Of a DNA stretch of 64,000 nucleotides, positions 33,712 through 58,549 are shown piece after piece. Positions within the stretch are counted from its first letter, which is position 1, and each line of letters opens with the position of its first letter. Both the position numbers and the translations under genes were made by a program. Location of the stretch: NCBI GenBank assembly GCA_044892525.1, contig CM097888.1, positions 71,362,001-71,426,000 on the forward strand, read 5' to 3'. The notes under the pieces were generated by a model. That model had not been told where the DNA came from. It worked only from the letters and a program-made list of their open reading frames with translations, and ran no database searches. The stretch is from Schmidtea polychroa (lineage: Eukaryota).

Positions 33712-36082
33712 ATCTATTCTACGACAGAACAGAACTCCAGCAACTAACGCACGATAACTCACGAGGACAATCCCAAGATTCAAGAGATTTTTACAGAACT
33801 AGACGATATTCGAGCATTAACTGATTCGACATAGTACCCTTTTCGACTCAGCCCATACTTGTATCAATCATTCAGTAAGGATTTTTGATTGCTTATTTTG
33901 AATTTTTAAGTAATGCGTATAGTTTAATAATATTTTTAATTTAAAAAATGGTTTTTCTTTTCGTTTGATTTTCGAATGCTTTACTTAAATTAATAATTTG
34001 CTTAATAATAAATGATTTGCTCGTTAAGAATTATTGATCTTTTATGAATTAATTTGTATGAATTATTGGAGACTATTCAATTTTGCGAGAAACGTGGCGT
34101 TGAGATACTCTATGTCATGGTGTGAGGTGCCTTCGGGAGCTCCACCGGTGGACATAGGGTATTTCAATCACGCAGCTAGATTGGGCCGAAATGTGAGGGC
34201 TTCTTCACGGGTCCAATTGCTGAAGGTGCGACTAAAAGCTATAGGTAAATGGTGGCAGAAAATTGATAGTCATGTAGTGATTGAAAACAAAGATATATAA
34301 TAAAGGAATCGGAGAGTTTGGATGTATTCGCGCAGTGATTGAGGGTGTCGCACTATCGTCTTCAAATATCGTTTTTGCTAAACCTAAAAATCTCTCTATC
34401 ATCAATGTAGGTTGTGCGTCAAAAATTGTTCAAACCTTAATGAGGCTATCTGTGACATATCTTTGATGTTCATACCTTTCACTCAGAATCTGTTCCGACC
34501 AATTTTAGCCTATGACCTTTTGAACTATTATTCCGTTCACCTAAAAGTTCTCTTAAAGACATCGTTGCAAGGAAGCTCAAAGTAGATTGCTTCAGATAAT
34601 TATTGGAATTATTCCAAATGACTGTTTACGGATAAATTGTAGAACTACGTAAAATAATTTATTATAGATAATTGTTAGAACTTCATAAAACGAGTTTGTT
34701 CCAATTAAAATTTTGAATTACATAAAATAATTTACTTCAATTAATTTTTTTTTTTGAATTATATAAAAATATTTACCTATAATCAATTATCATAATTACA
34801 CGAACTATTGGCATCAAATAATTTAAAATGAAAAATGCAACCAATTCGAACCAAGAAAATATATTTCTTCAAGTTAGCCGATAATCTTGTTAAATACAAA
34901 ATTCCAGTATTACATGAGGTTGGCAATCCAGCAGAGATAGGAAAAAATCCTCCAGCACTTAGAGAGTAGATTGATAAACTAGGCTTGAGGAATTAGAGAC
35001 GAAAAATCCACCCTTGGAGCAAGCAGTATCCAACATTTGCAATATAGATAATTTTAATTTTTCCAATAATCCGGTGAGAATTAGTAAATCATCACCATAT
35101 GCCGTAGAATTGTGAGCGAATACGCGGTGGATAAAATTCTGAGAGAATGCCATCATGCAAACATTCAACGCCTGCATTGGTAGTATAATTAAGCGGGTGA
35201 AAGCGCACCTGGCATGCGTCACCAGTTGCAGACTTACCTAATAGCCAAGTACAGTAGACAAAGTCACACACGCATCTACTCATGAAAAATTAGATCGAAC
35301 ATGCCAATTAAACTACCGACAGCTATCAGATTTCACCGCTTCGGATTAAGAGTCAATCACTGGGCTGACATTACCTTATCTACCCAGCAGGTATGATCGA
35401 CTACTAGCTCACACTGATACCGTGCTCAGTTGTTATAAAGACACTAACATTTAATGATAAACTCGATCATAATTATGAGTATTCTCTCGTTATTATCTTA
35501 GCATGAATGGCACCGAAATTATTTCAATTTTTGACATAGTTATCATTAATATTAGTATCGAATATTGTTAAATAAATATTATGTAAACCAGGTAAAACAC
35601 ATACGTGAGTAATTAAAGAAAATGAATAAACAATTAAAAATTTAAATAACCTTCCGTTTGTCCTGTAGGAACTAATCAACAGGCATTATGGACCCCTTTT
35701 CCATAGATAGTCACTCGACCCCAATATATGATACACTCAGTAAAAGCACTCGTACGGGGGGAGAAGTCGACAATTTAAATCGATTCTCGGTAAACGTGAA
35801 ATAATGACTCCAAGCGGATTAAATAAATAATCAGTTTCATCGACATAGAATTTCTCTCACAAACAGTAATCTCTTCCTTTTCCTTGTGCGAAATCTGGGT
35901 TGATTGATTTATCTTCTTATAATTAAAGCCCCGAAAGGGTACGAGAATCCATCGCGTAGTAGAACTTGTCCTGACTGGTAAACCCTTATTTTTGTCTATG
36001 ATCAGTACAGTATGAATGTAGTCAGGTGGTGACGCTCCCGCTGATTTAATTATTTTCATTTTCTTTTTCACAGTCGCTCAAA

Positions 36083-36832
36083 ATGTTGCCAAATTCCAAG
36101 CCCGTTCTTCGACCTTGTTTTTCTTGCTCCGACAAGAATTCAATTATCAAAGAGCTCCAGGCCCAAATTGGCAAGCACAAAAGAAGGATAGATGAGTTAG
36201 AGGGGACATGGTTTAGTCCCACCCAGATGAAGGAGGCTCAGAAGAAGCTGCACCGAAGCGAGCACTGTAGAGACGCGTTGATTTCCGAGAGTCGGGCGCA
36301 GAGGAGCCTGATAAAAGAGCAGTCGGAGGCGCTGCACAAATTGTACGTCCAGGCCGCAACTACAAGGAAGATCGCGAAGATCCCGATTAACGAAGCCAGT
36401 AACCTTTTCCCAGCACATCATGATATCTCTGGCGGGTCTTCTCCTCCAGTCGGAAAGTCCTGCCATGGGTGCGTAGAGACCGAGCTCTCACCTAAAGGAC
36501 CAGAAATCATCTTTACCGGAACCAGTAAAGTGCTACCTGCGATAGCATCCACCTCAGCAGCACCCTCGACCAACCAAACAGCATCGAAGCCAAAGCGTCG
36601 ACAATTATCGAGAGCAGAACGAAAGAAAAAACAGCGGGAACGCATAACCGCCAAACAGAACCAGCAATCGTCGGATCATCCAATCAAAGTCATCAACCCC
36701 CCTGCAGCAATCGATTTAGCACCAGTGATCTCAGGGCGAATCATCTCCGCCGCTGGTGTTACCTGGGAGGAAAACGCCTCTGAGTTTTTCGATTTGGAAG
36801 ATCTATTGGCAGACTCGGAGTGGGAGAAATGA
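36083..36832 (+). CDS. LTR-encoded 249-aa protein (coiled coil, basic NLS-like stretch, acidic C-terminus), 5' LTR copy
   Basis: GC-elevated ORF; acceptor TTTTCTTTTTCACAG| 9 nt before the ATG; AATAAA at 36967-36972; identical copy in the 3' LTR. Confidence 0.75.
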   Translation: MLPNSKPVLRPCFSCSDKNSIIKELQAQIGKHKRRIDELEGTWFSPTQMKEAQKKLHRSEHCRDALISESRAQRSLIKEQSEALHKLYVQAATTRKIAKIPINEASNLFPAHHDISGGSSPPVGKSCHGCVETELSPKGPEIIFTGTSKVLPAIASTSAAPSTNQTASKPKRRQLSRAERKKKQRERITAKQNQQSSDHPIKVINPPAAIDLAPVISGRIISAAGVTWEENASEFFDLEDLLADSEWEK

Positions 36833-37049
36833 GAACTTCCCCGTAAAAAGTCTTCGTTCTCTGAATTGACCTGAACATTGTCTGATAACATTTTACCTTG
36901 TCTCTTTTCCCGTTGTCGTGAACTTTATTGTATAGGTGTTAGATATATTTGTGTGATAATCTTAATAATAAACCATTTTTGTCTGCATACGTTCTTTTTG
37001 TGTTCATCTTAAGACAGTTGAGTTGAAATTGGTAAATGGTATTGAGAGT

Positions 37050-37312
37050 CATAAAATTATGAGGAGCATTAGTCAGTTGGTAAACTCAGCTAGAAATATT
37101 GCGATGGGGCGACGGAATGAGTAGACGTAAGTCCTTCTATCGGCAGTCAGGGTTGGGAAGTCGAGGCCTCAGTAAGGAGTAGTCCGAAGGAGCTGGCTCA
37201 CCTGCTTACTGGCGTCTCGCCGGCATAGCACAGTTCCAACGTGAAGCAATTCACGGGTGCTATGTTGGAGTGTAAGTTATGTACGGGTCCCGCTCGGCGA
37301 TGACCAAATAAA
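37050..37312 (+). promoter_or_regulatory. Putative genomic-RNA promoter/R region with major splice donor and poly(A) signal
   Basis: CATAAAA at 37050; Inr-like TCAGTT at 37073-37078; ATG AGT AGA C|GTAAGT (ATG 37117, donor 37127); AATAAA at 37307-37312. Confidence 0.45.
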
Positions 37313-37403
37313 TGACGGGCGAAATCGAGGTGGGCATTCATCCTCTAGACTAAAGCTGCACTAGAAAGGGGTCATCCGAGTAGTGTACCCGCAACATAAT
37401 TTT

Positions 37404-37721: not shown

Positions 37722-38207
37722 ATGACGGAATTCGTAGACCAGATACAACAACTAATCAACTTCATAAACATCGAGAATGACTCCCTTAAAACGCTGACAC
37801 AAAAAAGAGAAAGAATTAACATCATACTACTTCAAGCAATCGGGCAAACACCAGTCGTCCCCAACCACATGTTATTAGCCACAGGACTAAGTCACCCAGA
37901 TGGGAAGGTAAACCCGGAAACCGTGTATCAATGGTATCAAGAGAGATTGAACCACCCAGCATTAAATCTTGATTATCAACGTATAAAAGATCCACTAAAT
38001 ACCATATCAGATACAATCGAGCGGAAAATACAAGAAAAACTGACTCTACTACGAACTTGTCGTGCTTGTAAACTTCGTCCTATTCGCGTACTGTTTTTGC
38101 CGTGTGGACACCTCAGTCACTGCGAAGAATGTGTGAACGATTTAAAACGATGTACGATATGTAGGCATGAAATAAAAGAAACTCATATGGTTTATTATGG
38201 TGAATAA
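37722..38207 (+). CDS. 161-aa protein with a C-terminal IAP/RNF34-type C3HC4 RING, no BIR
   Basis: CRACKLRPIRVLFLPCGHLSHCEECVNDLKRCTICRHEIKETHMVYY; acceptor TTTTTTTTATAG|acATG; AATAAA overlapping the stop. Confidence 0.85.
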   Translation: MTEFVDQIQQLINFINIENDSLKTLTQKRERINIILLQAIGQTPVVPNHMLLATGLSHPDGKVNPETVYQWYQERLNHPALNLDYQRIKDPLNTISDTIERKIQEKLTLLRTCRACKLRPIRVLFLPCGHLSHCEECVNDLKRCTICRHEIKETHMVYYGE

Positions 38208-40535: not shown

Positions 40536-41441
40536 ATGACGAATATCGTAAAAACCGACGAGTATAAAGAGAAGTTCAGAGGAGAACCGTTCAACGGAAA
40601 TGCAAACAAGTTAGCAACGTTCATAACTAATTTTGAAGTTTATATCACTGTATGTGGATGGACACCCGAAGCAATTAGTAAAAGGATGCCGTTGTTTTTG
40701 TGCGATAGCGCATTAGAAGTATATTTAGAAGCTAAAGAGAGAGATACGAAATTAGAAAAGTGGGAAGATATCAAAACATTCCTGAAGAAAACCTTCGGAG
40801 CCAGTAAGCCAATCAACCAGGCGTTGGGCGAACTAGCAAATAGGAAACAAAGAGCAAACGAATCGATAACATTATATGCCAGTGAATTGCGGAGATTAGC
40901 GAAGAAAGCAATGAATGGAAAATTACCCGAAGAAAATCTGATCGGTTATTTCATAGAGGGATTACGCCGAGAAGAAGTAAGGGCCTCAGTAGGTTGTCAA
41001 ATGTGCAAAACATTAGAGGAAGCCATAGATTGGGCTACAAGATGCGAGCTCCACCTTCCAGCTCAAATGAATATTATGCAAGAGGAGGGAAGGATAATGA
41101 CAGCAATAGCGAAAGCGGATAACGGAGATAACAACAATCAAGAACCGAAAATGAATCAATTTATACCAGGAGCGCACCAAATTTTCAAACCACCACAAGG
41201 ACGATCAAATGGGAATAATGGTAATCGTAACAACCCGAATAATGAGAACAATTTTAATAATCGACGAAATATGAACGATAACAAGCAGTGTCGAACATGC
41301 GGTAAACCAGGACACTGGGACAGAGATTGCTATAGAAATTCAAATTGTAATCGTTGCGGACGGCGTGGACATACCGAAAATGTATGCCAATTGAGAGGTT
41401 GTTTTAACTGTGGTCAGCCAGGTCACATCTCCAGAGATTGC
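40536..41441 (+). other. Polyprotein domain: Gag capsid plus three CCHC zinc knuckles (41289-41441)
   Basis: EPFNGNANKLATF..F..Y capsid start; CRTCGKPGHWDRDC, CNRCGRRGHTENVC, CFNCGQPGHISRDC. Confidence 0.9.
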
Positions 41442-44400
41442 CGAGAAAGGGGCCAACAACAACGAGCACCACAGCGAAATAATAATTATATGGCGAATCC
41501 GCAACGACAAAGTAACCCTAGCGAAGGAAAACAAATGAACGTTATGCAGGAAATCTCGCAGATGAAACAGATGATGCAACAAATGATGAGACCAAGACAA
41601 GAACCAGCACCACAACAAACCCAGAACATACGTATGATGAGGAGTACCGAAAATCTCAACAATTATGAAGTGCATCAACATGTACAAGAATGGCAAAGAC
41701 TACAGGCCGAGGAAGAGAGGATAAAACAAGAACGCAACCAACAACGACAAGAACAACCATTGCGAATTAATATGATGAAGTTAGTAAAAGACATGAAAAG
41801 CCAGTATTGCTACAATTACGGGAAAAACCCAAGGGTAGTACCCATGACTGAACCAGAAAAGGTAACAGAAACAACAACGGAAATGAAAACAGAGAATTCA
41901 ACCACGATTTTAAAAGGAAACCAGAGAATTCAGAAAATATTCTGGAAAAAGATAAAAGATAAAATCGAAAAAGAACATAATAAAGCGAAAGCCGAGACAG
42001 AAGATGAAAATAACAAGAGCAAGGAACAAACCAGTCAACTAAACCACCAAATGCTACAAGAATTAGAATCAGAAGAAACAACGATATTCGAAAGAAAGAA
42101 ACTAAAGAGAGTACCAAGGATGAGAAACTTGCAAATCAATATGATGAAAAGGACAAAAGATGTAGCATCGTCAGACGAAGAAGAAGACTATGTAAGTAGT
42201 TTGGGTGGAGAAATACTACAGCTGAATGAAATAAGCGAACCTCCAAAAGGGGAAATCAAAGAGGAAGAAGGCGAAAGCGAGATAACCAGCGAAAGTGAAG
42301 ACGAGGATATCGAAATGAAGTTGAGAAAAGGGAAGGAGGAAGCGATAAAACAAGTAGCGGAAATACTCCCAGTAGTAGTGAGGAACCAAGAGTTCATTGA
42401 CGTAATACCATTCAGGCGATTCGTGCAAAAAGTGATGAAATTGGAAAGAAACGAGAAAGATTTAATACCAAACGAGGAAAAATCAATTATAAAAAAGTAT
42501 ATGGAAAAAATGAAGCAGGCAGATACCACGCGGTATGTCATAAAAATCGGAACGAGCAGAGGACTTGAAAGAATGTGGATAAAAAATACAGTCACCGACG
42601 AACTTTTCGATTGGATACGAGAACATTTGGGAAGTTCGAGAAAGAAAGAATATCTGTATCAATACCAAGGAGAACAGATCAAACCAGATATGCACTTAGT
42701 AGATGCACTAATATGGCCAGGAGAAACGCAAATACTGAAGTTGCATAAAGAAAAACAACCAGCCAACCTGTACGATTGGGCTAAAGATGCCAAGGCAGAA
42801 TATGATTTTAACATCAAATTGAAATTAGAACAAATAAAACAATGTACTCTGAGACGAAACCTGGATAAGCTGATCAAACAAATTCAAGCACAAGTGGAAG
42901 ACAACTGGGATTTACTCATCACCAGACGAGCCCCAGCCATGTACGAACTAATGAGCCGATTGCGAGATACAGAAATGCTCCGGATGAGTGATTGGAGAAC
43001 CATAAATTTAATCCACAAATATGGAAGGTTAAAAGAAACCCAGCCACAGAGGTTGGAAATAACCATATGGTTACCGAACGAAGAAAAACGACGAATAAAA
43101 ATGAGCAATCAGAGTACAGTAGATGACTTGGTATCAAAAATAAACCAAGAGATAACGGAAAAGGTACGTAGCGAAAGTAGTGATGGTATGGTGGATGATG
43201 TAGTCATGATGTACGATAAAATAATATTACGAGCGGAGGACGACACCTCGTTAAGCGAAATGGGTATGTGGGACAATCATCAGATAATCAGGATAGTACC
43301 AATGGATGAATTTCGAACAAGAGATGTAACCTATCAAAAAGAAATACGAGACCGGATGAAAACGTTATATCAAAAATCTACGGAAATAATTAAAATCCAC
43401 CAACAATGGTTAAAAGAAAAGGAACTACAAGGAAAAATCACGAAACTAAGTACCAGATCCTGCAGACGAACCCCATGGGAAAGAGTGTGGAATGCAGAAA
43501 CTAAGGAATGGGAAATCCGGAAAGGAATCTTCGTAGAAACAGACATTGGTGAGACAGAAAGTGAATCGGAGGAAGAAGAAGAGGAACCTCCAGAATATGA
43601 AGAAGAAGTAAGGGAACAGACATCGGATGACGAAAGCGAGACAGATGTCACATCAGAAAGCGAAAATGAAGCGAGACATATTCATGCAATGAGGAAAAAG
43701 GAACGAGAATATGCTGATATGGACGGCGAGGAAGCAATAGAAGCAAGAGAACGAGAAGAGAAAGAAAGATATAAACAATTAGGCGATATCTTAGCAATGG
43801 GAGCGAAAAATCAAAAACGCCAAGTAGTAGCGTTGGCTAACATCATCTTAAAAACATCAGAAAACATCCACAATCTGAGAGGAATGGCAAAGGCAATAGA
43901 GGAATACCGGCAATATAATGAATGGTATCCAGAACAGCTAGAACAAATTATTCGAAAATGGAGAAATCAGGAATGGGCACAAGACACTCAGGAGAGGTAT
44001 CACATCCGAATCAAGTATCCGGACAAGAGCATCGAGGAACTAGAGGTGCATCCAACAACAAAGATTAGAGAATTAAAAAAGAAGTTAGCATATGAAACTC
44101 CATTCCATCTGCAACTGTTCGGAAAATCACTAGACGATAATGCAGACGTCGGAATAACACCCATGAGATTGGAAGAGACAAATGTATTAACAATGGCAGA
44201 AACGTTGGGGAAACCGTTAAAAAGGAAAAGTAAAATTACTAAACTAACAAAAGGCAGTTTGAGTACTCCAAGTCCGAACAAAGCACCAAGTAAATCTAAT
44301 GAAACTGAAGAAGTTGAAGAGATAATCCTGGAAGATAGTGACGATGAACCAGGAGAAAGATCACCGCTATTAGTGAGATGGCCGACAGGAGCCGAAATGT

Positions 44401-47400
44401 GGACTAATAACCAGCCATCAACGAGTTATCAACAACCAACGAAACTGAACATCAAAGAAATCATCGACAATACTACGGAAACCGAAACGGATGAACAATT
44501 CCAGAAGCAAAGAGAACCAACGAAAGTAACACCAGAAGGTCAAACCGATAAAATAATAGATGAATGGAATGAGTGGCTAAAAAATAACGATAGCTCATTA
44601 CCCAGAACGGATAACGAAAGAAATCCGAATTACGAAAATACCAGAGAAGCCGGAACGATGATGGAAAAACGGGCAAAAGGAAGACCTAAGAAACAAGGAG
44701 AAAAGTCTGAGTTTAAAACCAAAGAACAATTAAAGCAAGAACAAGGGCAAGTTCGATTAGAGAAATTGGATAAAATAGTATGGGATCTAAAGGAAGCCCA
44801 ACCAACGATCGAAAGAGGAGAAAAATGGATACGAGAATTGTTAAAAGATATGTTAATAATAACAAACCCACAACTTAGACGCTTGTGGCAACGGAAAGTA
44901 GCCAGTACGGAAGCTAGACAATTATGGCACATCGTTTCGGGGATAATCCCAAAGTTAATCAAAGAGAAAACGAAAACCACCAAAACGGATTGGGATGAAA
45001 CAAAGAGAGTGATTGAACAGCTCACGACGAATGCAAATGATGACGAACATCACCTAGTGGTAATCACGTATTTGATGTATAATTTGATGGGACTAGCTGC
45101 GAGGAAAATACCAAATAAACAATTTGCAAATCATGTGGAAATGACCGTTTCAATCATAGAGAATACTATTGAACCACATATTATCCGTGCCGGAGGATGG
45201 AAAAGACTTATACAAGCGCCACGAAAAAATGAGCAAGAAAGGTCGATGCAAGTTAGATTGAAGAAGTTGTTGAATGAACTAGAATGGGAACTACCCATGA
45301 AAGACCCAGCAAGCCGAAAAGCATCGATAAATTCGTTAATGATGACTATGATGATATGGATGTTGTGCACAAGTGGAGCAACAGGTTTTACCATCTACGA
45401 TTGTGATAATATGATAATGAGAGATAAATACTCGTTGAGAGACATAGAAGAATGCAGACAAGCATCACCCAACAAATTAGACATAGTAAGAACAAAAGTT
45501 ACTTACCATGTATATCAAGAATCAGATTTCATCAGAACGCAAGCAAGGGAATGCGTGGTATCAAAAAAGGTACTCGCATATTACTGTGGACAATATTCGT
45601 ATTCGACTCTTATACTACCTGGTCTGGATAAAGAAATCGTATCAATACAACGAGAGGACTGTAAAGAGCTATTTAGAACCGGAGCGCTAAAAATGCATAA
45701 CGGAGTGACGATTCACGGACAAACTGGAATGATTAAAACCGAAAGCGTTTACGTATCCGGAAAAGTAAAATCATCAGATGGGTCATGTAACGGAGGTACG
45801 TATACGATCCGAGGCGAGGTAATATCGGGAGTAGTAGTGATCGAGTCTTACACGGTCGAATTAAAAGAATACGAAGCGCAATTTGACGCAAATAATTACC
45901 AAATGAAGACCAACCCAGCGTGTAGAGCTACAGAAAACGTATGTAGGACAGGAGTATCAACTATAATCTATGAAGCTAATACCCAAATATGCCGACTCCA
46001 ACTGTTAAAAAGTGCTTTGTTCAATGAAGTAAAAGGAGAAATATATGAGAACGAGAACGACGAGGATGGAAACGACAGAGTGAGAATGCGAAATGGAAAA
46101 CCAATGCCACCATCTCCCAGAGAAAAGAGACTTTCAACGCAGAAGACACCAACAGCATTAATCACAGACGATCCAGATCTAGGTATGAGATTTATCAAAG
46201 AGAAAGAAACCACCAAATGTGACAGTATAGTATATAAAACCAATTACGCAGGCATCTATATGTCGAGACAAATAATCGATAGAGCAGTGGGAAAGATAGC
46301 AACGGAGGACGTAAAACTATACTTATATGCAAATAATAAAATGGATTTTCTATTTCATCGCGGACAAACGACCTTGCAAAAAGTATATTACGATCTGATA
46401 CAAAACGATTGTTCATTGAATAAAGAAATATTGAAAACAAAGCTAGCTATTGCGATAACGCACCCAGATAACACGATGCCATCACTCCCATTACCAGATG
46501 GACACTTTGGTAGAATGGTAGGAGAAGTGATGTACACATACCAGTGTACCAAGACGTATGCACGAATGCCAGAAAAATCCATACTACCCGAAAAGAGATG
46601 TGCAAATGAATTAGAAATCCGTTATAAAGGACAAAATCGATTCGTCCAACCAGTCACTAGAATTATGAATCCAGTGGGTTTCTACCCAAATCTCTTTAAC
46701 TGTTCTAATGCATACGGACCTTTATATGAAAGGCCCGATGGGAAATGGATGATGTTACCGGGAAAAACCATATCCGAGGAGCCCAAGAAATTTGGATTAA
46801 TAGAACTCGCCACAGAGCTGGATTTCAAACCTATAGACGTGTCAAACGGTGGTATGTATTCCCCAGAAGATCTAGAAACAGCACGACTTAACGTACTCTT
46901 CCCAGCCAGACGAGAATCCATTTTGTCAAATATGGTTACAATAACGGGGGGAACAAATTATCAATCAGGCCCGAATTACGAGCTGCTACTATCGCCAGAC
47001 CATTTTCAACAAGCCACATCAAACATGATGAAAGCCATGTGGGGAAGATTCTTAGTTTTTGGACAAATGATGGCCGGGATATTAGGGATCATACTCATAA
47101 TTCAGATAGTCAGAGTAATACTAACACAAATGTTAGCGTGTTTTGATATATACAAGCGAGAAAAGAAAGTAAATTGGAAAATGATAGTAGGCTTTCTACC
47201 ATTTTTAGCTAAAACCATGGTATTACATGGTCACTCAAAAGACATTCATCGGATAAAGCGATTGATTAAAATATTAACAAAGATTAAAGGAACCGACGAG
47301 GAAGTAGGCAGACGATTCCGGAAAGTAATGTACGATGAAGCAACAAGACGACAATTGAAAAAGAATAAGCCAAAATTCTTGGACCGATTTAGAAGCCAAT

Positions 47401-50400
47401 CATCTAACAGCGATAGTGACGACGATGATAACGGGAACGATAAATGTCTATATCCAAACAGAAACCCAAACGAAAAACCAATGGAAACGGCACCATATTG
47501 GGAGAAGGAAAAGACAAATACCTGGATCGCCAATGGAAGCTACATACCACCGGATATCGCGGGACCACAAGCAGCTTTGACCATGACACAAAATATGTAT
47601 CCGCAATTACCAAGTCAACCCGGTATGCATTATATGCCAACACGACGTACCAAAAGTGTAGATCAAGCAGATGACGTAAGAACAATAGCAGCGATGAGTT
47701 TACCTGGAGGTCCAGCAGTAACAGTTATGATTCAAATCAATGGTAAAGAAACCAATGCTATGATAGACACAGGAGCTAATGTATCAGCGATAGCGATTAA
47801 TCAAATTCCCAGTAAACACTGGAAAGATATCGAATCCACAACAATTCACATCATAGCATGTAGTAAAGAAACAGTGGACGTGGTCGGAAGATGGTGGACT
47901 ACATTGAGATACCAGGACAACGAAATTGAAACGTATTTGGCAGTAATACCAAAACTTAGCGTACCATGCATAATCGGAACGGATTTGATGCCAGAATTGT
48001 TAAAAGAAGTCGTAATTGACTTAACAACCATGTGTTTAAAAGACAAAACCGGTAGAATATGCAAAATGAATGTAGTCATCAGATGTCCAGAAAAAATAAT
48101 AGTACCAGCAAAATCGCAGATGATTTGTCAGATAAAAGTGGATACGGGTATGGAAGGAGAAGTTATCTTTGAACCAAGCAAGTCATTTGAAAAGCGACGA
48201 GAATTACCACTCGCAAGAGAAATAATCACAATAAACCAAGAAGGAGTGATACCGCTCAACATCACGAATTTCGAAGAGGAAGACAAAATCATTTATGAGA
48301 ACGAAAAATTAGGAAAATTGACCCCAATGATGGACATAGAATTACCGAAAGTGACCAACGAGATGATCAAAGATGATGAATTATGGACAATAGATAGTAT
48401 GTTGTTGACGAATGATGAAAAGAAAAAATTGCACCGATTGTTGGTAGAATATAAAGATATATTCGCCATCTCAGATTTAGACTTGGGTACATGTGATGTT
48501 ACCTTACATGCAATACCACTCATAGACGAAACCCCAATTGCATTGAGACCATACAAGTTAGCAGAAATGCAGAAAGAAATAGCCGAAACAGAAGTACAAA
48601 AGATGCTAGACGCAAAAGTAATCGAACCAAGTTGCTCACCCTGGCAATTCCCAGTGGTCATGGTAAAAAAGAAAGATGGCACCCAACGATTCTGTATCGA
48701 TTATCGGAAGTTAAACGCAGTAACCAAGAGAGATACCTATCCATTGCCGGACATCAATGAGATGTTATTGATGTTGCAAGGGGCAGCATATTTTACTTCT
48801 TTAGATCTAAAAAGTGGATACTGGCAGATTAAAGTCAAAGATGAGGACAAAGAGAAAACAGCTTTCACGTTGGGACGAGATCTATATCAATTCAGGAAAA
48901 TGCCATTTGGACTGACCAACGCACCAGCATCATTTCAACGGTGTATGAACTTTGTCACCCATGGAATCAAACAATGTATGGTATATATTGATGATTTACT
49001 AATCTATTCAGCGACATTTGAACAACATCTGGAAGATATCCGAAACGTATTTATTAGATTAAGACAGTGGAAACTCAAACTCAAACCATCAAAATGCGAT
49101 TGGGCAAAGGAAAAAGTCACGTTTTTAGGACACATAGTGTCAGCTAAAGGAAAGGAGCCAGATCCAAGAAACATTGAGAAAATAAAAACATGTCCAGCAC
49201 CGAAAACTGTCACCCAAGTTCAGGAATTTCTAGGATTATGCGGATACTATCGCAAATTTATCAAAAATTATGCAGGAATTGCAAAACCAATCCAGGAATT
49301 AGTAAAGAAGGACATTTCGTTCATTTGGGGGAAGGAACAACAAGAGGCGTTCGAAACGCTGAGAGATAAACTAATCGAAGCACCTATCCTCGTACACCCA
49401 GATTTTAAGAAGCCATTTCTATTGGCAACGGATGCAAGCGGGTACGCGGCAGGCGCGATTCTGGGACAATTAGATGATGAAGGAAAAGAGAGAGTAATCG
49501 GGTATTACAGTCGAACATTCAAAAAGCACGAAAAGAACTATTCGGTAACAGAACGGGAAGCATTGGCTATAATACAAGCTATCAAACACTTCCGATACTT
49601 ACTATGGGGACATGAGATATGTATAACCACAGATCATCAACCATTAGTGTGGTTAGGGCAACATAAAGAAGCGTCCAGTAGACTGATGAGATGGGCCATG
49701 CAATTGCAAGAATACTCCCCATTTATAAAATTCAAAGCGGGAAGAGCAAATGCCAACGCCGATTGTATGTCAAGATTTATTTTCCCAGATTTGGTGGATT
49801 CAGAAATGCAACGCATATGCTTAATAGTAGCGGAAGATTTGGATTTCTGTCAACTGCGAAAGGACCAACAAGAGGACGCGGAATTAAAACAAATTATCGA
49901 TTATGTAAAAACCGGAAAGACAGATGTATATGCGAAAGACCAAAAATTAAAAGAACATATGGATAAACACCGACACCGATATATTATAGAGAAAGATTGG
50001 TTGCTGATAATGGATGGGGAAAAACGATTAATGTGTATACCGGAAAACCGACGAAAAGAGTTACTAACGCAATATCACGATGGGAGATTGGGAGGACATA
50101 TGTCATCGAAAAAGACGTTAGCAAGAATGAAACAGAAATATTTTTGGCCTACGTTAACTGAAGATGTAACCGAATGGGTAAAAAATTGTCTAACTTGTGC
50201 AACCAGGAAGAATACTGGATCGAAATGGAAAGCACCTTTAACGCCAATGCCAGTACCAATAGAACCAATGACAATGATATCCATGGACGTAGTTGGTCCA
50301 CTACCAGAGTCAGATAAAGGAAACGTTTACATTCTAGTGATCACAGACTTTCTTACGAAATTCCCAGAAGCATTCGCGATGCCAGACCAAAAAGCTAAAA

Positions 50401-53400
50401 CAATCGCAAAAATTTTGGTAGAAGAGATATGTTGCCGATATGGAACACCAAAACAAATCTTAACCGATCAGGGAACTAATTTTATGAGTGAGATAATGAG
50501 CGAAGTAACAAATTACTTCAAAATAGCAAAACTAAGAACATCTCCATACCACCCTCAAACCAATGGGATGACGGAAAGATTTAATGGAACACTTATACAA
50601 ATGTTATCAAACTACGTCGACCGTCACCAACGAGATTGGGACGAATATATAAACCTATGTCTTATGGCATACAGAATGTCGATTCACGCATCAACGAAAA
50701 TGAGCCCATTCAAATTAATGTACGGAAGAGAGTGTAATATGCCAATGGACCTGGAATACCAACCACCGATATCGCAGTATATGGAGATCGATGATTATGT
50801 TACGAAATTCAAGGAAAGAATGCAAGAGATTTGGGAAACTGCGGGATTAAATATCAAGTTCTACCAGGAAAGTTATAAAGATTTACACGATCGAAAGAAA
50901 AACGTGAAGCAACATACGTTTCAAACAGGTGATTGGGTAATGATAGAAACCCCGGAATTAATTCCAGGAACCACAAAAAAGTTACAACGCAACGGAAAAG
51001 GACCATATGAGATCTTATTCGTAGGCGAAACTAATGTAAGAGTGAAATTGGTAAATAACCCCTTTACCAGGCCAATATACGTAAACGTGGCACGATGCAA
51101 ATCAATTCCAAAAACAGCCACTAGTCAACCAGAAGGCCGTACATTAACCACACGTTCGCAAACCTACAGAATGAACATGATGCAACAACTCGCAGAACCG
51201 ATCACTGGACGATTAGGTATCCAACCATCAGAAGCGGAAAAGATTGTAAAAGAGGTAAAAATTAAAATACCTGGATGGGCAAAAGATCGATTAGATTTCG
51301 AAATATTAGGAGGATTATTGACGATGATCGAGAACTATGCAAATAGAGAAAGGACACACCCATTATTGCGAGTAGTCAAAAGCCAATGGCCAATATTATT
51401 TACCATAACAGATCATTACGGAGACACACCATTACACAAACTCATGAAAGTAGGTAACAACGAGCAAATACTAGAAACAATAGAAGCATTTCACGACTGC
51501 AAGCGATCAACAGAACAAACAAACAACCAAGGTTACACACCATTAATGATAGCCGCAAACAGAGGCAAAACAAAAGACGTTATAACCGCATTACTCGATA
51601 CTGGATCGAAAATAACTACACAAGACCACGAGCGGAAAAACGCTCTATATCATGCTATCGAAGGGAGAAGTACCGAGGCGTTCACGTCATTGATGGAACT
51701 ACTATCATATGAGGACAATCGAGAAGTCGGAAACATGTATGATGGATTATTAACAGCGATCAAAGAGAAACTGACAACAATTACCGGAATATTAATTACA
51801 TGGAGAAATCCAATTCAAAACGATTATATGATCAACGTAAACGAAGCGTTCACGAGAGGAGAGAACACGCTGATGAGAGAAGCTATGAAAGGACATCATT
51901 TATTCGAAATCCCGAATCAATTACTAGAACGAGGGATAAAATTCACAAATCACAAAGATGAACAGTTAACAAAAAAGCGAATCGACACATTCGAAAAATC
52001 ACTATTCCAATTTACTAACCAAGTACGAAATAAATATTGGGAAACGGTAAGTGTGTTATATATGATGGACACAATGAATAACATCCGCGAGAATTACCTG
52101 GATATTATCCAAATACTTACAGCAGAGGAACGAATCAATAATCCAAACGGAAAGAAAACGAAAATAAGGTATGAGAAATCCAGGGAATCAAAGTCAACAA
52201 CGAACCAAACGGTCACAAACAACGTCATCGAAACCAAATCAATGAGTATAGATCAAGAGGCAATAATACGCAAAGCAAAAGAAGTGTTCTTTGAGGAAAT
52301 GCTAGAGCTGCCAGACGAAATAATATTGTCCAAAATAATAAAAGCCGTACACACATACGCAAGAGATCAAACCACGGGTTTAGATATCGGGAAAATCAAA
52401 ACCTTCTTGCCTCGAGCATTTACGATGGTAACAAAGGATTCCAGAACACCTCTACAACAAGCAATACTAGCTGCAAAAGAGAATAGAGCAATAACGATCA
52501 TGAGCATCCTTGGGGAGATGGGCGAGGAAACCAACACGAAAAATGAACAAGGTGAAACCGCCATGATGTATGCAGCTATAACGAAAATACACCCAAAAAC
52601 ACTCCACATCCTACATCAATCAGGATCGAAACTAGACGAAAGGTCCAATGAAGGAAATTCCACCTTGGACTGGGCAACCATACAGCCAAACTTAGAAATG
52701 ATCAGATTTATTTGCAAAAATGCGACAAAGGAAGAAGTTGAAAACATGTGCAAAGACACATCTCAGTTTCAATGGAATACGATACGGAAAAATCTAGAAG
52801 CAATGAAATTATTATTAACCTGGAGAGTACCACAAAATAATAAATATGCGATAAATGTAAACGAATTCTACGAAAACGGAGAAAATGCGATGGTAAAGAA
52901 CACCCTAACTAAGGGGGGGACGCCTAAAATTATTTTAATAGTATTAAATAGAGAAGACCTAAAATTCACGCAAAATCAGAACGAGCAACAACGAATTGGG
53001 AAACATCGTCGCATGCAATTGAGAGAGTTAGTTAAAGAATGGAATAGAAAGAGACATGCTGCAACGGGTAGAAAAGAGTTTGAATTCGAAGCAAAATTAG
53101 CAAGAAACAGAGTGCTAACAGCATATCGCAGATTATTGAACGATATAAATGTCGAGGACGACATTTTAAACGACAGCGGGGGAGATAAAAACGATGACAA
53201 TGACGGAAAAGGCCGAAAGGAGGATAAAGGGAAAAGAGAACCGGAAGAGGATAAACCGGAAAACAAGGATTTGGATACGAAAAGAGAGGGAAACAGGCCG
53301 GGAACCAAGACCAAAGAGGAGGAAAAATCGAATAATGGAAAACAGAGGGTATGCCTACCTTTCACTAACAAAGAAATAGAGACAAATATGATATTAATGA

Positions 53401-54389
53401 TAATTATGCTTACCATGATAGAGTTAGTAACAGCTCAGGGAGGGACGAGAACGATAAAAGAAACCAAAGAAGCGGAGAATCAAGATAGCAAAGAGGATGA
53501 ACTAAAGCAAGAAAAGAAAAAGCAAGCACAAGAGCAGCAGTGGGATTTAAAGGAAGAATGGGACTTAAAGGAAAGGTGCATACTAGGAAGATGCATGTCT
53601 AGAGCGTATCAGAAACTAGTACTGATAAATGAGGACACAGAACCAATAACAGAAGTAAGAATACAAGAAGCATACCGAAATCGAGACGGGAAGAGAATAA
53701 CGAACGTTAAAGGAAAAGAGGTACACCTAGGAAAAGGTGGTGAAGTAGTAATAACGCAGCTCCAACCTAGAAGAGAGCACAAAGTCTGTATTTCAAGATT
53801 AGGACCAGGTGAGAGATGCCATCAATATGTGACGCAGCAGCAGCCGCCGAAAGAATACACGGTTTGTATCTGGAGGAATGAATCAAAAAGAGAATGCCGA
53901 CGATACCCAGGGAAAAGAGGAAAGAAAAGAAAAAACCACGACGAAAAGAACGAAGGAGGAAAGCACAAGAAAACCGGCGAGGAAGCTCAGGACAACTATG
54001 TTTCGGAGGAAGAGATGGAAAAAATACAAAAGATGGCAAAGGAGGGTATGAACGAGGAAATAGCAAGAATACGGGAAATGATGAAAGGAAATGGCAAAAG
54101 AGGAAACGAGAAAGGTATAGAAGCGATATCAACATTAACGAACAAGGAGAAACCAGAGAATATAAGCGTGAAGCAGATGATGTGGATCAGTGGGATAATA
54201 ATAACAGGGGCCTTCCTAATCATAACGGGGGGAACAATAAAAATAATCAAAGATAAACGACATCGCGGAGAACTAGAGATGACCCGAATCAGAAATTTCC
54301 AACATCGAGTGAAACGACCAAGTGATATCAAACAAGAACAGTGGGTGGAGGCCTGGAACGCTCAGCGCCCTCCAAACTCACGTATATAG
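40536..54389 (+). CDS. gag-pol: Single 4617-aa Gag-Env-Pol-accessory polyprotein (frame open from 40191)
   Basis: No stop or frameshift over 13.85 kb; contains CCHC knuckles, DTG protease, YIDD RT, RNase H and HHCC/DDE integrase. Confidence 0.97.
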   Translation: MTNIVKTDEYKEKFRGEPFNGNANKLATFITNFEVYITVCGWTPEAISKRMPLFLCDSALEVYLEAKERDTKLEKWEDIKTFLKKTFGASKPINQALGELANRKQRANESITLYASELRRLAKKAMNGKLPEENLIGYFIEGLRREEVRASVGCQMCKTLEEAIDWATRCELHLPAQMNIMQEEGRIMTAIAKADNGDNNNQEPKMNQFIPGAHQIFKPPQGRSNGNNGNRNNPNNENNFNNRRNMNDNKQCRTCGKPGHWDRDCYRNSNCNRCGRRGHTENVCQLRGCFNCGQPGHISRDCRERGQQQRAPQRNNNYMANPQRQSNPSEGKQMNVMQEISQMKQMMQQMMRPRQEPAPQQTQNIRMMRSTENLNNYEVHQHVQEWQRLQAEEERIKQERNQQRQEQPLRINMMKLVKDMKSQYCYNYGKNPRVVPMTEPEKVTETTTEMKTENSTTILKGNQRIQKIFWKKIKDKIEKEHNKAKAETEDENNKSKEQTSQLNHQMLQELESEETTIFERKKLKRVPRMRNLQINMMKRTKDVASSDEEEDYVSSLGGEILQLNEISEPPKGEIKEEEGESEITSESEDEDIEMKLRKGKEEAIKQVAEILPVVVRNQEFIDVIPFRRFVQKVMKLERNEKDLIPNEEKSIIKKYMEKMKQADTTRYVIKIGTSRGLERMWIKNTVTDELFDWIREHLGSSRKKEYLYQYQGEQIKPDMHLVDALIWPGETQILKLHKEKQPANLYDWAKDAKAEYDFNIKLKLEQIKQCTLRRNLDKLIKQIQAQVEDNWDLLITRRAPAMYELMSRLRDTEMLRMSDWRTINLIHKYGRLKETQPQRLEITIWLPNEEKRRIKMSNQSTVDDLVSKINQEITEKVRSESSDGMVDDVVMMYDKIILRAEDDTSLSEMGMWDNHQIIRIVPMDEFRTRDVTYQKEIRDRMKTLYQKSTEIIKIHQQWLKEKELQGKITKLSTRSCRRTPWERVWNAETKEWEIRKGIFVETDIGETESESEEEEEEPPEYEEEVREQTSDDESETDVTSESENEARHIHAMRKKEREYADMDGEEAIEAREREEKERYKQLGDILAMGAKNQKRQVVALANIILKTSENIHNLRGMAKAIEEYRQYNEWYPEQLEQIIRKWRNQEWAQDTQERYHIRIKYPDKSIEELEVHPTTKIRELKKKLAYETPFHLQLFGKSLDDNADVGITPMRLEETNVLTMAETLGKPLKRKSKITKLTKGSLSTPSPNKAPSKSNETEEVEEIILEDSDDEPGERSPLLVRWPTGAEMWTNNQPSTSYQQPTKLNIKEIIDNTTETETDEQFQKQREPTKVTPEGQTDKIIDEWNEWLKNNDSSLPRTDNERNPNYENTREAGTMMEKRAKGRPKKQGEKSEFKTKEQLKQEQGQVRLEKLDKIVWDLKEAQPTIERGEKWIRELLKDMLIITNPQLRRLWQRKVASTEARQLWHIVSGIIPKLIKEKTKTTKTDWDETKRVIEQLTTNANDDEHHLVVITYLMYNLMGLAARKIPNKQFANHVEMTVSIIENTIEPHIIRAGGWKRLIQAPRKNEQERSMQVRLKKLLNELEWELPMKDPASRKASINSLMMTMMIWMLCTSGATGFTIYDCDNMIMRDKYSLRDIEECRQASPNKLDIVRTKVTYHVYQESDFIRTQARECVVSKKVLAYYCGQYSYSTLILPGLDKEIVSIQREDCKELFRTGALKMHNGVTIHGQTGMIKTESVYVSGKVKSSDGSCNGGTYTIRGEVISGVVVIESYTVELKEYEAQFDANNYQMKTNPACRATENVCRTGVSTIIYEANTQICRLQLLKSALFNEVKGEIYENENDEDGNDRVRMRNGKPMPPSPREKRLSTQKTPTALITDDPDLGMRFIKEKETTKCDSIVYKTNYAGIYMSRQIIDRAVGKIATEDVKLYLYANNKMDFLFHRGQTTLQKVYYDLIQNDCSLNKEILKTKLAIAITHPDNTMPSLPLPDGHFGRMVGEVMYTYQCTKTYARMPEKSILPEKRCANELEIRYKGQNRFVQPVTRIMNPVGFYPNLFNCSNAYGPLYERPDGKWMMLPGKTISEEPKKFGLIELATELDFKPIDVSNGGMYSPEDLETARLNVLFPARRESILSNMVTITGGTNYQSGPNYELLLSPDHFQQATSNMMKAMWGRFLVFGQMMAGILGIILIIQIVRVILTQMLACFDIYKREKKVNWKMIVGFLPFLAKTMVLHGHSKDIHRIKRLIKILTKIKGTDEEVGRRFRKVMYDEATRRQLKKNKPKFLDRFRSQSSNSDSDDDDNGNDKCLYPNRNPNEKPMETAPYWEKEKTNTWIANGSYIPPDIAGPQAALTMTQNMYPQLPSQPGMHYMPTRRTKSVDQADDVRTIAAMSLPGGPAVTVMIQINGKETNAMIDTGANVSAIAINQIPSKHWKDIESTTIHIIACSKETVDVVGRWWTTLRYQDNEIETYLAVIPKLSVPCIIGTDLMPELLKEVVIDLTTMCLKDKTGRICKMNVVIRCPEKIIVPAKSQMICQIKVDTGMEGEVIFEPSKSFEKRRELPLAREIITINQEGVIPLNITNFEEEDKIIYENEKLGKLTPMMDIELPKVTNEMIKDDELWTIDSMLLTNDEKKKLHRLLVEYKDIFAISDLDLGTCDVTLHAIPLIDETPIALRPYKLAEMQKEIAETEVQKMLDAKVIEPSCSPWQFPVVMVKKKDGTQRFCIDYRKLNAVTKRDTYPLPDINEMLLMLQGAAYFTSLDLKSGYWQIKVKDEDKEKTAFTLGRDLYQFRKMPFGLTNAPASFQRCMNFVTHGIKQCMVYIDDLLIYSATFEQHLEDIRNVFIRLRQWKLKLKPSKCDWAKEKVTFLGHIVSAKGKEPDPRNIEKIKTCPAPKTVTQVQEFLGLCGYYRKFIKNYAGIAKPIQELVKKDISFIWGKEQQEAFETLRDKLIEAPILVHPDFKKPFLLATDASGYAAGAILGQLDDEGKERVIGYYSRTFKKHEKNYSVTEREALAIIQAIKHFRYLLWGHEICITTDHQPLVWLGQHKEASSRLMRWAMQLQEYSPFIKFKAGRANANADCMSRFIFPDLVDSEMQRICLIVAEDLDFCQLRKDQQEDAELKQIIDYVKTGKTDVYAKDQKLKEHMDKHRHRYIIEKDWLLIMDGEKRLMCIPENRRKELLTQYHDGRLGGHMSSKKTLARMKQKYFWPTLTEDVTEWVKNCLTCATRKNTGSKWKAPLTPMPVPIEPMTMISMDVVGPLPESDKGNVYILVITDFLTKFPEAFAMPDQKAKTIAKILVEEICCRYGTPKQILTDQGTNFMSEIMSEVTNYFKIAKLRTSPYHPQTNGMTERFNGTLIQMLSNYVDRHQRDWDEYINLCLMAYRMSIHASTKMSPFKLMYGRECNMPMDLEYQPPISQYMEIDDYVTKFKERMQEIWETAGLNIKFYQESYKDLHDRKKNVKQHTFQTGDWVMIETPELIPGTTKKLQRNGKGPYEILFVGETNVRVKLVNNPFTRPIYVNVARCKSIPKTATSQPEGRTLTTRSQTYRMNMMQQLAEPITGRLGIQPSEAEKIVKEVKIKIPGWAKDRLDFEILGGLLTMIENYANRERTHPLLRVVKSQWPILFTITDHYGDTPLHKLMKVGNNEQILETIEAFHDCKRSTEQTNNQGYTPLMIAANRGKTKDVITALLDTGSKITTQDHERKNALYHAIEGRSTEAFTSLMELLSYEDNREVGNMYDGLLTAIKEKLTTITGILITWRNPIQNDYMINVNEAFTRGENTLMREAMKGHHLFEIPNQLLERGIKFTNHKDEQLTKKRIDTFEKSLFQFTNQVRNKYWETVSVLYMMDTMNNIRENYLDIIQILTAEERINNPNGKKTKIRYEKSRESKSTTNQTVTNNVIETKSMSIDQEAIIRKAKEVFFEEMLELPDEIILSKIIKAVHTYARDQTTGLDIGKIKTFLPRAFTMVTKDSRTPLQQAILAAKENRAITIMSILGEMGEETNTKNEQGETAMMYAAITKIHPKTLHILHQSGSKLDERSNEGNSTLDWATIQPNLEMIRFICKNATKEEVENMCKDTSQFQWNTIRKNLEAMKLLLTWRVPQNNKYAINVNEFYENGENAMVKNTLTKGGTPKIILIVLNREDLKFTQNQNEQQRIGKHRRMQLRELVKEWNRKRHAATGRKEFEFEAKLARNRVLTAYRRLLNDINVEDDILNDSGGDKNDDNDGKGRKEDKGKREPEEDKPENKDLDTKREGNRPGTKTKEEEKSNNGKQRVCLPFTNKEIETNMILMIIMLTMIELVTAQGGTRTIKETKEAENQDSKEDELKQEKKKQAQEQQWDLKEEWDLKERCILGRCMSRAYQKLVLINEDTEPITEVRIQEAYRNRDGKRITNVKGKEVHLGKGGEVVITQLQPRREHKVCISRLGPGERCHQYVTQQQPPKEYTVCIWRNESKRECRRYPGKRGKKRKNHDEKNEGGKHKKTGEEAQDNYVSEEEMEKIQKMAKEGMNEEIARIREMMKGNGKRGNEKGIEAISTLTNKEKPENISVKQMMWISGIIITGAFLIITGGTIKIIKDKRHRGELEMTRIRNFQHRVKRPSDIKQEQWVEAWNAQRPPNSRI
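42534..44194 (+). other. Polyprotein domains: three ubiquitin-like domains (~42534-42745, ~43053-43299, ~43998-44194)
   Basis: Patterns parallel ubiquitin's beta-grasp, e.g. IRIKYPDKSIEELEVHPTTKIRELKKKL...LQLFGKSLDD and ITIWLPNEEKRRIKMSNQSTVDDLVSKI...DTSLSEMGM. Confidence 0.65.
44757..45215 (+). other. Polyprotein domain: Bcl-2-like helical bundle
   Basis: IENTIEPHIIRAGGWKRLIQ aligns to Bcl-xL BH2 (LNDHLEPWIQENGGWDTFVE); a degenerate BH1 sits at the expected upstream spacing. Confidence 0.6.
45327..47135 (+). other. Polyprotein domain: envelope glycoprotein (signal peptide, Cys-rich ectodomain, REKR furin site at 46119-46130, TM), chuvirus-like
   Basis: Signal INSLMMTMMIWMLCTSGATG|FTIYDC; motifs YDC..YSLRDIEEC, YCGQYSY, DGSCNGG, C.L.KEILKTKLAIA, GEVMY..QC, GMYS.EDL..LFP; TM at 47049-47135. 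Confidence 0.8.
47718..47990 (+). other. Polyprotein domain: aspartic protease
   Basis: AMIDTGANVSAI (Asp codon at 47766) and IIGTDLM. Confidence 0.92.
48540..49785 (+). other. Polyprotein domains: reverse transcriptase and RNase H
   Basis: SPW.FPVVMVKKKDG..RFCIDYRKLN, LDLKSGYWQI, MPFGLTNAPASFQ, YIDD (48984); TDASG, E.EALA, TDH, NANADCMSR. Confidence 0.97.
50070..51110 (+). other. Polyprotein domain: integrase with GPY/F motif
   Basis: H..RLGGH...CLTC; MDVVGP, TDQG, TERFN (D,D35E); GKGPYEI. Confidence 0.95.
51411..52920 (+). other. Polyprotein domains: two duplicated ankyrin-repeat modules after integrase
   Basis: GDTPLH, GYTPLMIAA, KNALYHAI; RTPLQQAI, GETAMMYAA, GNSTLDWA; both modules end in TWR..N.Y.INVNE....GEN. 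Confidence 0.85.
53388..54249 (+). other. Polyprotein C-terminal module: second signal peptide, FN3-like ectodomain, TM helix
   Basis: MILMIIMLTMIELVTAQ (53388-53438); VVITQLQPRREHKVCIS resembles the FN3 L.P.T.Y motif; TM MMWISGIIITGAFLIITGGTIKII (54177-54249). Confidence 0.55.
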
Positions 54390-54994: not shown

Positions 54995-56383
54995 ATGGAT
55001 AAACGACAAAGAGAAGAGTTCAGAGAGATTGTCGAGCAAGTCCGAAAATCTACAACGATCAGAATACACAAACATGTTATGTGCGGAATATGTGAAAAGT
55101 TGTTAAAGGAACCTCACCAAACGCAATGTGGATGCAGAGTATGTAAAGAATGTATCAGTGAAGCAATAAAGAATAGACCACAGAGGTGCCCGGTGTGTAA
55201 AGAGACACTAATATCGAGTTTAGAAGACACTAACGAGGATAAAGCCGCAGTGAAAGACATGTTAAACACCAACCTGGGATGCAAAAATGCCCCATGCGAA
55301 TGGAAAGGAGTAATATGGAAGGTAGTACAACATATGGGAGAATGTATGTACAGAATTGGCCAGTGTGAAAGGTGCCATAAAACCATTCGAGCAAGCGAAG
55401 AAAAAGAGCATCAAAGGCAGTGTGAGGAGAGATTAGAAAGATGTGAACACTGTGGAGAAATAGATACGTGGAAAAATCTCACCCTCAAACATCACAATGT
55501 CCAAGAGGAGAGAGTATGTGCAGAGTTCAGTGGGGAATGCCCAAACGGATGTAACCAAGGGGAAATAATGAAGGTGGCACAGCATCTAAGGGAATGTGAA
55601 AAGAAAAGAATGACATGCGTACTAGGCAAATGGGGTTGTCAGAAACTACTACACCGAGGGGAGTTACCACATCATTTAGTAGAAAATGCTTCAACCCACG
55701 CAGAAATGTGGTCGACTGCGTTACAAGAAAGCGAGGAGAAAGTAAAACAAATGGAGATAGAGATAGCATCGTTGAAAGTATTAGTCAAAGAACTACTAGA
55801 AGAAAGGGAAGCGTTCGAAGAAGCCCGAGCAAACATAAAGATGCAAATAAACCGAATAGAAATCAGTAATAATCAGGCCAAGGAGCTACATCAGAAAATA
55901 CGGGAAATAAATCTAAATGAGATAACCCCAACAGCACCCTACATATGGAAGATTACGGGAGTAAAGGAAAGAATACGAAAAGCAAAAACCGGAGAAGAGA
56001 CAAGAATAACAAGTCCTGCATTCCATTCTTGGAAAAATGGGTACAAAATGAAAATGAAGATATATCCCAACGGGGACGGAACCGGATTAGACACACACTT
56101 TTCGATTTTCTTTCTGTTATGTAAAGGAGAATACGACGAAATAATAGAGTGGCCGTTCCAGGCGAAAATCGATATTGCACTAATGAATGACCGAAACATC
56201 CACGAACAAAGCTTCAAGACAACTGGAAACCAAATGTGTTACCAGAGACCTACGGAAGAAGAAGGATCAGCAACAGGAGCACCTACGTTCATCCTACAAC
56301 AAAAAGTAGAAGATATGGCAAGAAAGGGCACGGTGTATATCAAGATGACCGTAAGGAAAGAGGAGAAGGGCAGAACGGAGTAA
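54995..56383 (+). CDS. Intronless full-length TRAF-family protein (RING, TRAF zinc fingers, coiled coil, MATH domain), 462 aa
   Basis: CGIC..LLKEP.QT.CGCRVC..C..CPVC; GC.W.G....H...C; YIWKI...SPAF..GYKM..KIYPNGDG.G..TH.S.FF.L.KGEYD..I.WPF. Confidence 0.93.
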   Translation: MDKRQREEFREIVEQVRKSTTIRIHKHVMCGICEKLLKEPHQTQCGCRVCKECISEAIKNRPQRCPVCKETLISSLEDTNEDKAAVKDMLNTNLGCKNAPCEWKGVIWKVVQHMGECMYRIGQCERCHKTIRASEEKEHQRQCEERLERCEHCGEIDTWKNLTLKHHNVQEERVCAEFSGECPNGCNQGEIMKVAQHLRECEKKRMTCVLGKWGCQKLLHRGELPHHLVENASTHAEMWSTALQESEEKVKQMEIEIASLKVLVKELLEEREAFEEARANIKMQINRIEISNNQAKELHQKIREINLNEITPTAPYIWKITGVKERIRKAKTGEETRITSPAFHSWKNGYKMKMKIYPNGDGTGLDTHFSIFFLLCKGEYDEIIEWPFQAKIDIALMNDRNIHEQSFKTTGNQMCYQRPTEEEGSATGAPTFILQQKVEDMARKGTVYIKMTVRKEEKGRTE

Positions 56384-58508: not shown

Positions 58509-58549
58509 ATTAAGGGTCACTAAAACCAATTGTAAATAAACCATAATGA

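Follow-up and report, generated by a model that had tools for sequence, protein, structure and literature searches.

A divergent Bcl-2 homologue placed directly before a predicted internal Env signal peptide in a Burro-type retroelement of Schmidtea polychroa

The window, a stretch of 64,000 nucleotides from Schmidtea polychroa (assembly GCA_044892525.1, contig CM097888.1, positions 71,362,001 to 71,426,000 of the forward strand), contains a Burro-type Gypsy element of about 30 kb that spans positions 33250 to 63587 (Table 1). Its LTRs are 4.1 kb each and both are flanked on their outer side by a 4-bp target duplication, TACC. The Pfam and profile searches identify in ORF1, in this order, Gag, zinc knuckles, a ubiquitin-like stretch, a Bcl-2-like domain, Env, protease, RT, RNase H, integrase and ankyrin repeats. 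The envelope glycoprotein is assigned by Pfam to the Monjiviricetes-type fusion glycoproteins (E 1e-69). Out of 1807 candidates in a genome search with the Bcl-2/Env junction, 139 gave scored matches, with identities of 94-100%, and the same full-length frame is present in 20 of the best 30 junction matches. These 139 matches, together with the near-identical LTRs, indicate a young and abundant family. The contigs of presumed RNA runs over the stretch represent divergent copies, with no joint in them, and bear on expression in neither direction.

Some further features of the element are less easily assigned. Five accessory ORFs lie 3' of ORF1 (window 54550-59209), of which one is TRAF-like and the others are without a Pfam family above the cut-off; the last one has hydrophobic stretches near its start and in its C-terminal half. 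Each LTR harbors an ORF of 249 aa (36083-36832 and 62274-63023) for which Pfam gives no family. Directly 3' of the 5' LTR (37397-37420) there is a primer-binding-site-like stretch, which we take to be tRNA-Pro-like, and the leader holds a tandem array with a 74-bp unit (38697-39245).

Table 1. Features of the retroelement, with positions in the window and the basis of each assignment
Feature	Position	Strand	Basis
5' LTR (TG...CA)	33250..37396	+	self-BLAST against the 3' LTR: 99.98% over 4149 bp
Accessory ORF, RING finger at C-terminus	37722..38207	+	PF13920, E 8e-12
ORF1, 4617-aa polyprotein	40536..54389	+	ATG at 40536; single open frame, 4617 codons
Ubiquitin-like stretch, weak, 5' of the Bcl-2 module	44004..44108	+	PF00240, E 0.0045, 17.2 bits; cut-off 25.4
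KGRPKK motif, just 5' of the Bcl-2 domain	44676..44693	+	G-R-P motif at the equivalent place in relatives
Bcl-2-like domain, aa 1427-1559	44814..45212	+	C-terminal half well supported, N-terminal half weakly
BH1-equivalent segment without NWGR, EQLTTNANDDEHHLVV, aa 1494-1509	45015..45062	+	aligned to BH1 of relatives and Bcl-xL
BH2-like motif, IEPHIIRAGGWKRLI, aa 1545-1559	45168..45212	+	nearly all aligned rows have GGW
Variable linker, BH2 to signal helix	45213..45311	+	20-56 residues across 9 lineages
Predicted internal Env signal peptide, aa 1593-1617	45312..45386	+	n-region basic, h-region short, A-T-G at the end of the c-region
Env: fusion glycoprotein ectodomain and transmembrane segment (47037-47150)	45387..47150	+	PF24664, E 1e-69; hydropathy
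Second predicted internal signal peptide, after integrase and ankyrin repeats	53376..53438	+	hydropathy; cassette recurs in relatives
C-terminal transmembrane helix of the second cassette	54171..54233	+	hydropathy
Accessory ORF, TRAF-like (RING and MATH)	54995..56383	+	PF21355, E 3e-25
3' LTR	59442..63587	+	self-BLAST against the 5' LTR

Burro elements are giant Gypsy-like LTR retrotransposons of planarians, about 30 kb long and with a polyprotein of more than 4500 aa; they are described as having a CCHC-knuckle Gag, a ubiquitin-like motif, a BCL2-like motif, an in-frame Env and a protease, as well as ankyrin repeats and a MATH/TRAF gene, and their Env, located between BCL2 and protease, is related to mononegavirus fusion proteins (PMC6431247). 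The window element is alike in size, single polyprotein, domain order, ankyrin repeats and TRAF gene, and is matched by this published description. With more than 25 kb, long LTRs, the Gag-to-ankyrin order and a MATH/TRAF ORF, it is a Burro-type element. The place of the TRAF gene differs, being a downstream accessory ORF in the window element, inside ORF1 in Burro1 and upstream in a Dugesia element, and no BIR domain was found by Pfam in the window element, as a further difference from Burro. The element type and the order of Bcl-2 before Env are thus already published, and the domain itself is no discovery. The primary Burro report is that of Grohme et al. 2018, as cited in PMC6431247, and an anti-apoptotic protein of Burro1 is said to be the subject of a 2025 preprint. 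In planarians with piwi knocked down, the level of BURRO1 RNA goes up (PMC8532177).

The sequence-only reading of this DNA had proposed a Bcl-2-like domain in window 44757-45386, corresponding to ORF1 aa 1408-1617. Taken alone, the window sequence reaches 14.2 bits with the Pfam Bcl-2 family (E 0.068; cut-off 31.4), a single-sequence search of the PDB with the domain gives nothing at E<=10, an ESM Atlas search gives no usable match, and word-indexed protein searches gave one match and two known ones, with none of 4500 candidates at near length. The assignment is settled by the relatives. A 10-row profile of element-borne domains matches Bcl-xL (E 3e-6) and BAX (E 3e-4) over a region spanning BH1-a5-a6-BH2, a profile of eight relatives from which the window and P0002 had been left out recovers the window domain at iE 9e-12, and hhalign of the element profile against six Bcl-2 genes of the same genome gives a probability of 95.7% (E 1e-8, 70 columns). 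The proposed domain is borne out by these comparisons and is, by profile homology, a real but divergent Bcl-2 homologue. Homology covers the C-terminal half, and a full helical bundle is only likely. The start of the domain, which had been put at aa ~1405, has to be moved: the fold probably begins at ~1424-1427, as whole-domain alignments to Bcl-2 chains open at model residue 19-23.

The domain evolves in a constrained manner. Between two subfamilies of the sister family B, dN/dS on the domain is ~0.10-0.14 (dS near saturation), which shows purifying selection in that family, and identity is 74-79% in the domain and 50% in the linker from BH2 to the helix. Between the window element and P0002, 57 of 100 residues are identical at aa 1401-1500 and 91 of 150 in Gag (aa 1-150), and identity over aa 451-1000 is 28-50%, below the 57% of the Bcl-2 domain.

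Structure models give a less clear picture. Two AlphaFold models of the domain have mean pLDDT values of 54.8 and 59.9, with ~62-82 in the C-terminal half and less than 50 in much of the N-terminal half. For the first (234 aa, from element rows only), Foldseek mixes 14-3-3 proteins with Bcl-xL at E>0.5, and VIA gives 12 Bcl-2-family chains in 50 listed rows at Z 6.6-7.7, level with unrelated bundles. The input alignment of the second, domain-only model took in the six Bcl-2 genes of the genome, so that this model leans toward Bcl-2. Its VIA matches that align over 120-125 residues are only Bcl-2 chains (Z 6.8-7.3, rmsd 4.3-4.7), with unrelated rows above them at Z 8.0-8.4. The AlphaFold and Foldseek comparison that the sequence-only reading had suggested returns the Bcl-2 family in 34 of the 36 rows listed for the domain-only model, but at low pLDDT and with each row at E>0.3. 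No poxvirus NF-kB-type Bcl-2 fold is present among the listed matches by sequence or structure, which excludes nothing.

The BH2-like motif had been correctly recognized, its register at aa 1545-1559 being confirmed in the alignment of relatives, and the same holds for a BH1 position lacking NWGR, confirmed at aa 1494-1509 by alignment to relatives and Bcl-xL. In the window's family the core W of BH2 is replaced by H. All eight lineages that span BH1 lack the W and G of NWGR, and its basic residue is kept as R or K in six of these eight and is H in the window family. The canonical BH3 contact is made by a conserved Arg of Bcl-2 proteins (PMC7022251). The absence of W and G in 8/8 lineages makes classical BH3 binding doubtful. 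With Bcl-2 proteins, Bcl-xL included, the domain has in common the BH1-a5-a6-BH2 core and a hydrophobic helix after BH2, whereas it lacks NWGR and a clear BH3, is embedded in a polyprotein, and has as its tail a predicted cleavable ER signal shared with Env. Moreover, the helix lies ~20 residues further out in the window's family than in Bcl-xL or family C.

The distribution of the domain was followed in other elements. A genome search with Pfam Bcl-2 led to a second element family, B, of 13.4 kb with a frame of 3053 aa and an Env ~34% identical, and a third one, family C, was reached by a search with P0007. The representative library gave 23 matches, six with the Bcl-2 core and five with long upstream sequence and no core, the remaining 12 being too short or chimeric to judge. 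The helix is kept without any Bcl-2 core in P0004, P0005, P0008, P0021 and P0025, and of the 14 lineages having informative upstream sequence, 9 show Bcl-2 directly 5' of the helix. On the unrooted Env tree (18 of 21 rows, three short Bcl-2-bearing rows having been dropped) the Bcl-2 label needs six changes, at least three of them forced by well-supported branches. From the shared position and the shared motif loss we infer repeated loss of the domain from one ancestor. Finally, the KGRPKK motif just 5' of the domain is presumably AT-hook-like, and a G-R-P motif is found at the equivalent place in family B, P0002 and P0009 as well as in the Bcl-2-less P0004, P0005 and P0008.

Other Bcl-2 loci are present in the genome. 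L072 (with L084 and L085) is a 7.3-kb deletion copy of family B that has lost Env and pol and has LTRs 97.6% identical; its Gag-Bcl-2 frame runs into the C-terminal anchor, and it was set aside as anchor evidence as a one-off internal deletion. Multi-copy elements unrelated to the window element (L046-L060) bear free-standing Bcl-2 genes; some of these were read as two-exon genes having a basic-ended tail of their own, one lies near an ORF that is TBP-like by eye, and none gave a match to the window element. In addition, seven near-identical Bcl-2 gene copies with intact NWGR are clustered on C4 (L031-L037, G000:C4:89.9-90.8 Mb).

The core of the helix that follows the domain begins at aa 1601, 41 residues past BH2, and the putative cut ATG|F falls at 1617/1618. 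In 20 of 24 relatives the residues at -3 and -1 are both small (A at -3 and G at -1 in the window), and 19 of the 24 have A, G or S at -1, against a background of 15%, a test that overstates independence because the 24 rows are related. The register was set by the Env start motif, and P0002, P0012 and P0022, which do not span the junction, were left out. In relatives the Env profile PF24664 starts at its positions 4-8 inside the helix. From residue pattern and hydropathy, the helix is predicted to be a cleavable Env signal peptide; the basic stretch, the short core and the (-3,-1) pattern agree with the Env signal sequence and cut after ATG that the sequence-only reading had put forward. It had also called this the only nearby hydrophobic helix, ~40 aa downstream; the distance is right but "only" is not, as helix a5 of the core (aa 1507-1518) scores alike in Kyte-Doolittle hydropathy over 12 residues (1.78 versus 1.82 for the signal helix). 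Helix a5 is, however, expected to be buried in the Bcl-2 fold.

A predicted two-signal topology is shared by four complete relatives; a second signal-like helix and a final membrane helix come after integrase in the window element, family B, P0008 and P0025. By this pattern the polyprotein relies on internal signals at two points, and only the first of them is preceded by Bcl-2. Between the second signal and the final helix (window 53376-54389) there is a predicted luminal piece of ~245 aa for which Pfam gives no family, and the region looks like an unrecognised second membrane protein.

Candidate protease sites were sought along ORF1. A five-residue motif ending in Met occurs at aa 177, 333, 364, 410, 533, 1048, 2383 and 3545, coincides with a number of domain borders and is also present in P0002; its eight occurrences compare with 0.5 expected, a circular figure since the motif was picked by eye. 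When the motif is trained on the Gag-side sites only, the post-integrase site ranks 1 of 4069, and the pre-protease and RT/IN sites rank 194 and 261. The recurring motif thus probably marks some protease sites and is partly validated, and the ranks of 194 and 261 make it unable to place cuts around the Bcl-2 module. A match at aa 1598, just 5' of the helix, ranks 9 of 4069, which is at noise level, and neither family B nor P0009 shows such a match there.

Position is one argument for a possible second role of the Env signal, as a tail anchor of the Bcl-2 module. The spacing from BH2 to the helix is 45 residues in the window, 20-56 residues in all nine lineages in which the domain is present and the sequence reaches Env, and 25-29 residues in the free-standing genes of the genome. 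Family C, with a linker of 20 residues, aligns to full-length Bcl-xL without a shift from BH2 as far as the beginning of the tail (E 0.58, informative for position only). These alignments support a shared and conserved tail-anchor-like position in nine lineages. Over a span of 19 residues the hydropathy of the window helix is 1.27, marginal as a membrane span, and that of the Env anchor 2.53; the free-standing Bcl-2 tails of the genome, at 1.0-1.5, are no more hydrophobic than the window helix. In contrast to these free-standing tails, the window helix has no basic residues past the predicted cut. Helix length, hydrophobicity and flanking charge show no difference between nine Bcl-2-bearing and five Bcl-2-less rows (p 0.18-0.52; small n). 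The segment preceding a cleaved internal signal stays attached to that signal at first. It is likely that the Bcl-2 module is tethered right after cleavage, at least briefly. The helix would be its lasting C-terminus only with the predicted cut made and no second cut following.

The HCV core/E1 junction, which the sequence-only reading had invoked, is a useful comparison. In both systems the envelope's signal peptide forms the end of a cytosolic protein and signal peptidase leaves an ER anchor, in the window by prediction. The E1 signal anchors HCV core in the ER and a second cut, by SPP, then frees core (PMC5402940), so that the analogy stands for an anchored intermediate but not for a lasting anchor. 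The upstream protein is the capsid in HCV, whereas here it is a Bcl-2 homologue located 1400 residues into a retroelement polyprotein.

We lean, a little beyond even confidence, toward a reading in which the helix is the signal of Env and would also hold the Bcl-2 module, for a time, at the ER membrane on its cytosolic side, with the module acting outside the BH3 groove. The part of the polyprotein from Gag to Bcl-2 would be translated in the cytosol, helix 1593-1617 would thread Env into the ER, signal peptidase would cut behind G1617, and through the Env transmembrane segment the chain would come back to the cytosol, where protease, RT and integrase would lie; the C-terminal signal and anchor would then repeat the Env pattern. 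The helix would be primarily the signal of Env, the Bcl-2 domain being placed to borrow it as a tail. The lack of basic residues past the cut suggests the ER rather than mitochondria. Since the W and G of NWGR are gone, a groove-free action is likelier than a Bcl-xL-style sequestration of Bax/Bak, and the module may dampen death or stress signalling alongside the TRAF-like and RING genes. The poxvirus proteins A46, A49, A52, B14 and K7 may be compared as mobile-element Bcl-2 folds with lost motifs and perhaps groove-free action, a likeness that is functional only and speculative.

The helix may alternatively serve Env only, the Bcl-2 module being soon freed by SPP or the element protease and becoming soluble, perhaps nuclear, which we regard as unlikely. 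The nuclear idea has its basis in the AT-hook-like G-R-P motif found 5' of the domain in most lineages. A short h-region, and a helix that is unadapted where Bcl-2 is present, would fit such a release, and the tether would then end as in HCV, where core is freed by SPP (PMC5402940); soluble function has a model in the vaccinia Bcl-2-fold proteins A46, A49, A52, B14 and K7, which act on NF-kB signalling (PMC7022251). However, the free-standing Bcl-2 tails of the genome are equally weakly hydrophobic (1.0-1.5), and in 9/9 lineages having both the domain and sequence as far as Env, the domain is found at one place. The weak match to the junction motif at 1598 would agree with a cut in front of the helix, but it is at noise level and absent at that place in family B and P0009.

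It is quite improbable, in our estimation, that the main role of the helix is to hold the Gag-side precursor at the ER for particle assembly, in the style of a flaviviral capsid, with the Bcl-2 fold as a losable scaffold or accessory. The helix does end the Gag-side product in the five Bcl-2-less relatives, rows with and without Bcl-2 are intermingled on the Env tree, where well-supported branches force no fewer than three changes, and NWGR is degenerate. Against this, the probable protease sites at aa 178-534 and 1049 lie between Gag and the Bcl-2 module and would part the two, and the Bcl-2 domain is conserved to the same degree as Gag. A classical pro-survival viral Bcl-2, mitochondrial through the helix and binding the BH3 of Bax/Bak in its groove, is very improbable: the nearest profile matches are indeed Bcl-xL, R/K of NWGR is kept in 6/8 lineages and BH motifs can be missing from viral Bcl-2 proteins (PMC7022251), but W and G are absent in 8/8 lineages with H at the R position in the window family, and the helix must enter the ER for Env and has no basic residues past the predicted cut.

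The preferred reading, a module held for a time at the ER by the Env signal, can be extended to the whole clade of env-bearing giant retroelements. A captured Bcl-2 may be tail-anchored by the Env signal in all of these elements, giving one ER module per Env and a groove-free guard against ER-stress death; we propose this tentatively, with less than even confidence. In the literature searched, mostly outside subscription papers and the primary Burro paper, we found no text on a shared helix, signal peptides or topology, and the Burro section of the review by Arkhipova and Yushenova (2019; PMC6431247) makes no mention of a signal peptide, a topology or a tail anchor. That review suggests that Burro elements meddle with host apoptosis (PMC6431247). 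What is new here is the processing map, that is, an Env signal conserved in 24 relatives and a second cassette in four complete relatives, which also places the Bcl-2 domain at a tail-anchor position in nine lineages. It turns the open apoptosis suggestion for Burro into a small and direct cell test. If the anchor lasts, a reverse-transcribing element would couple the synthesis of its envelope to a death regulator through one helix.
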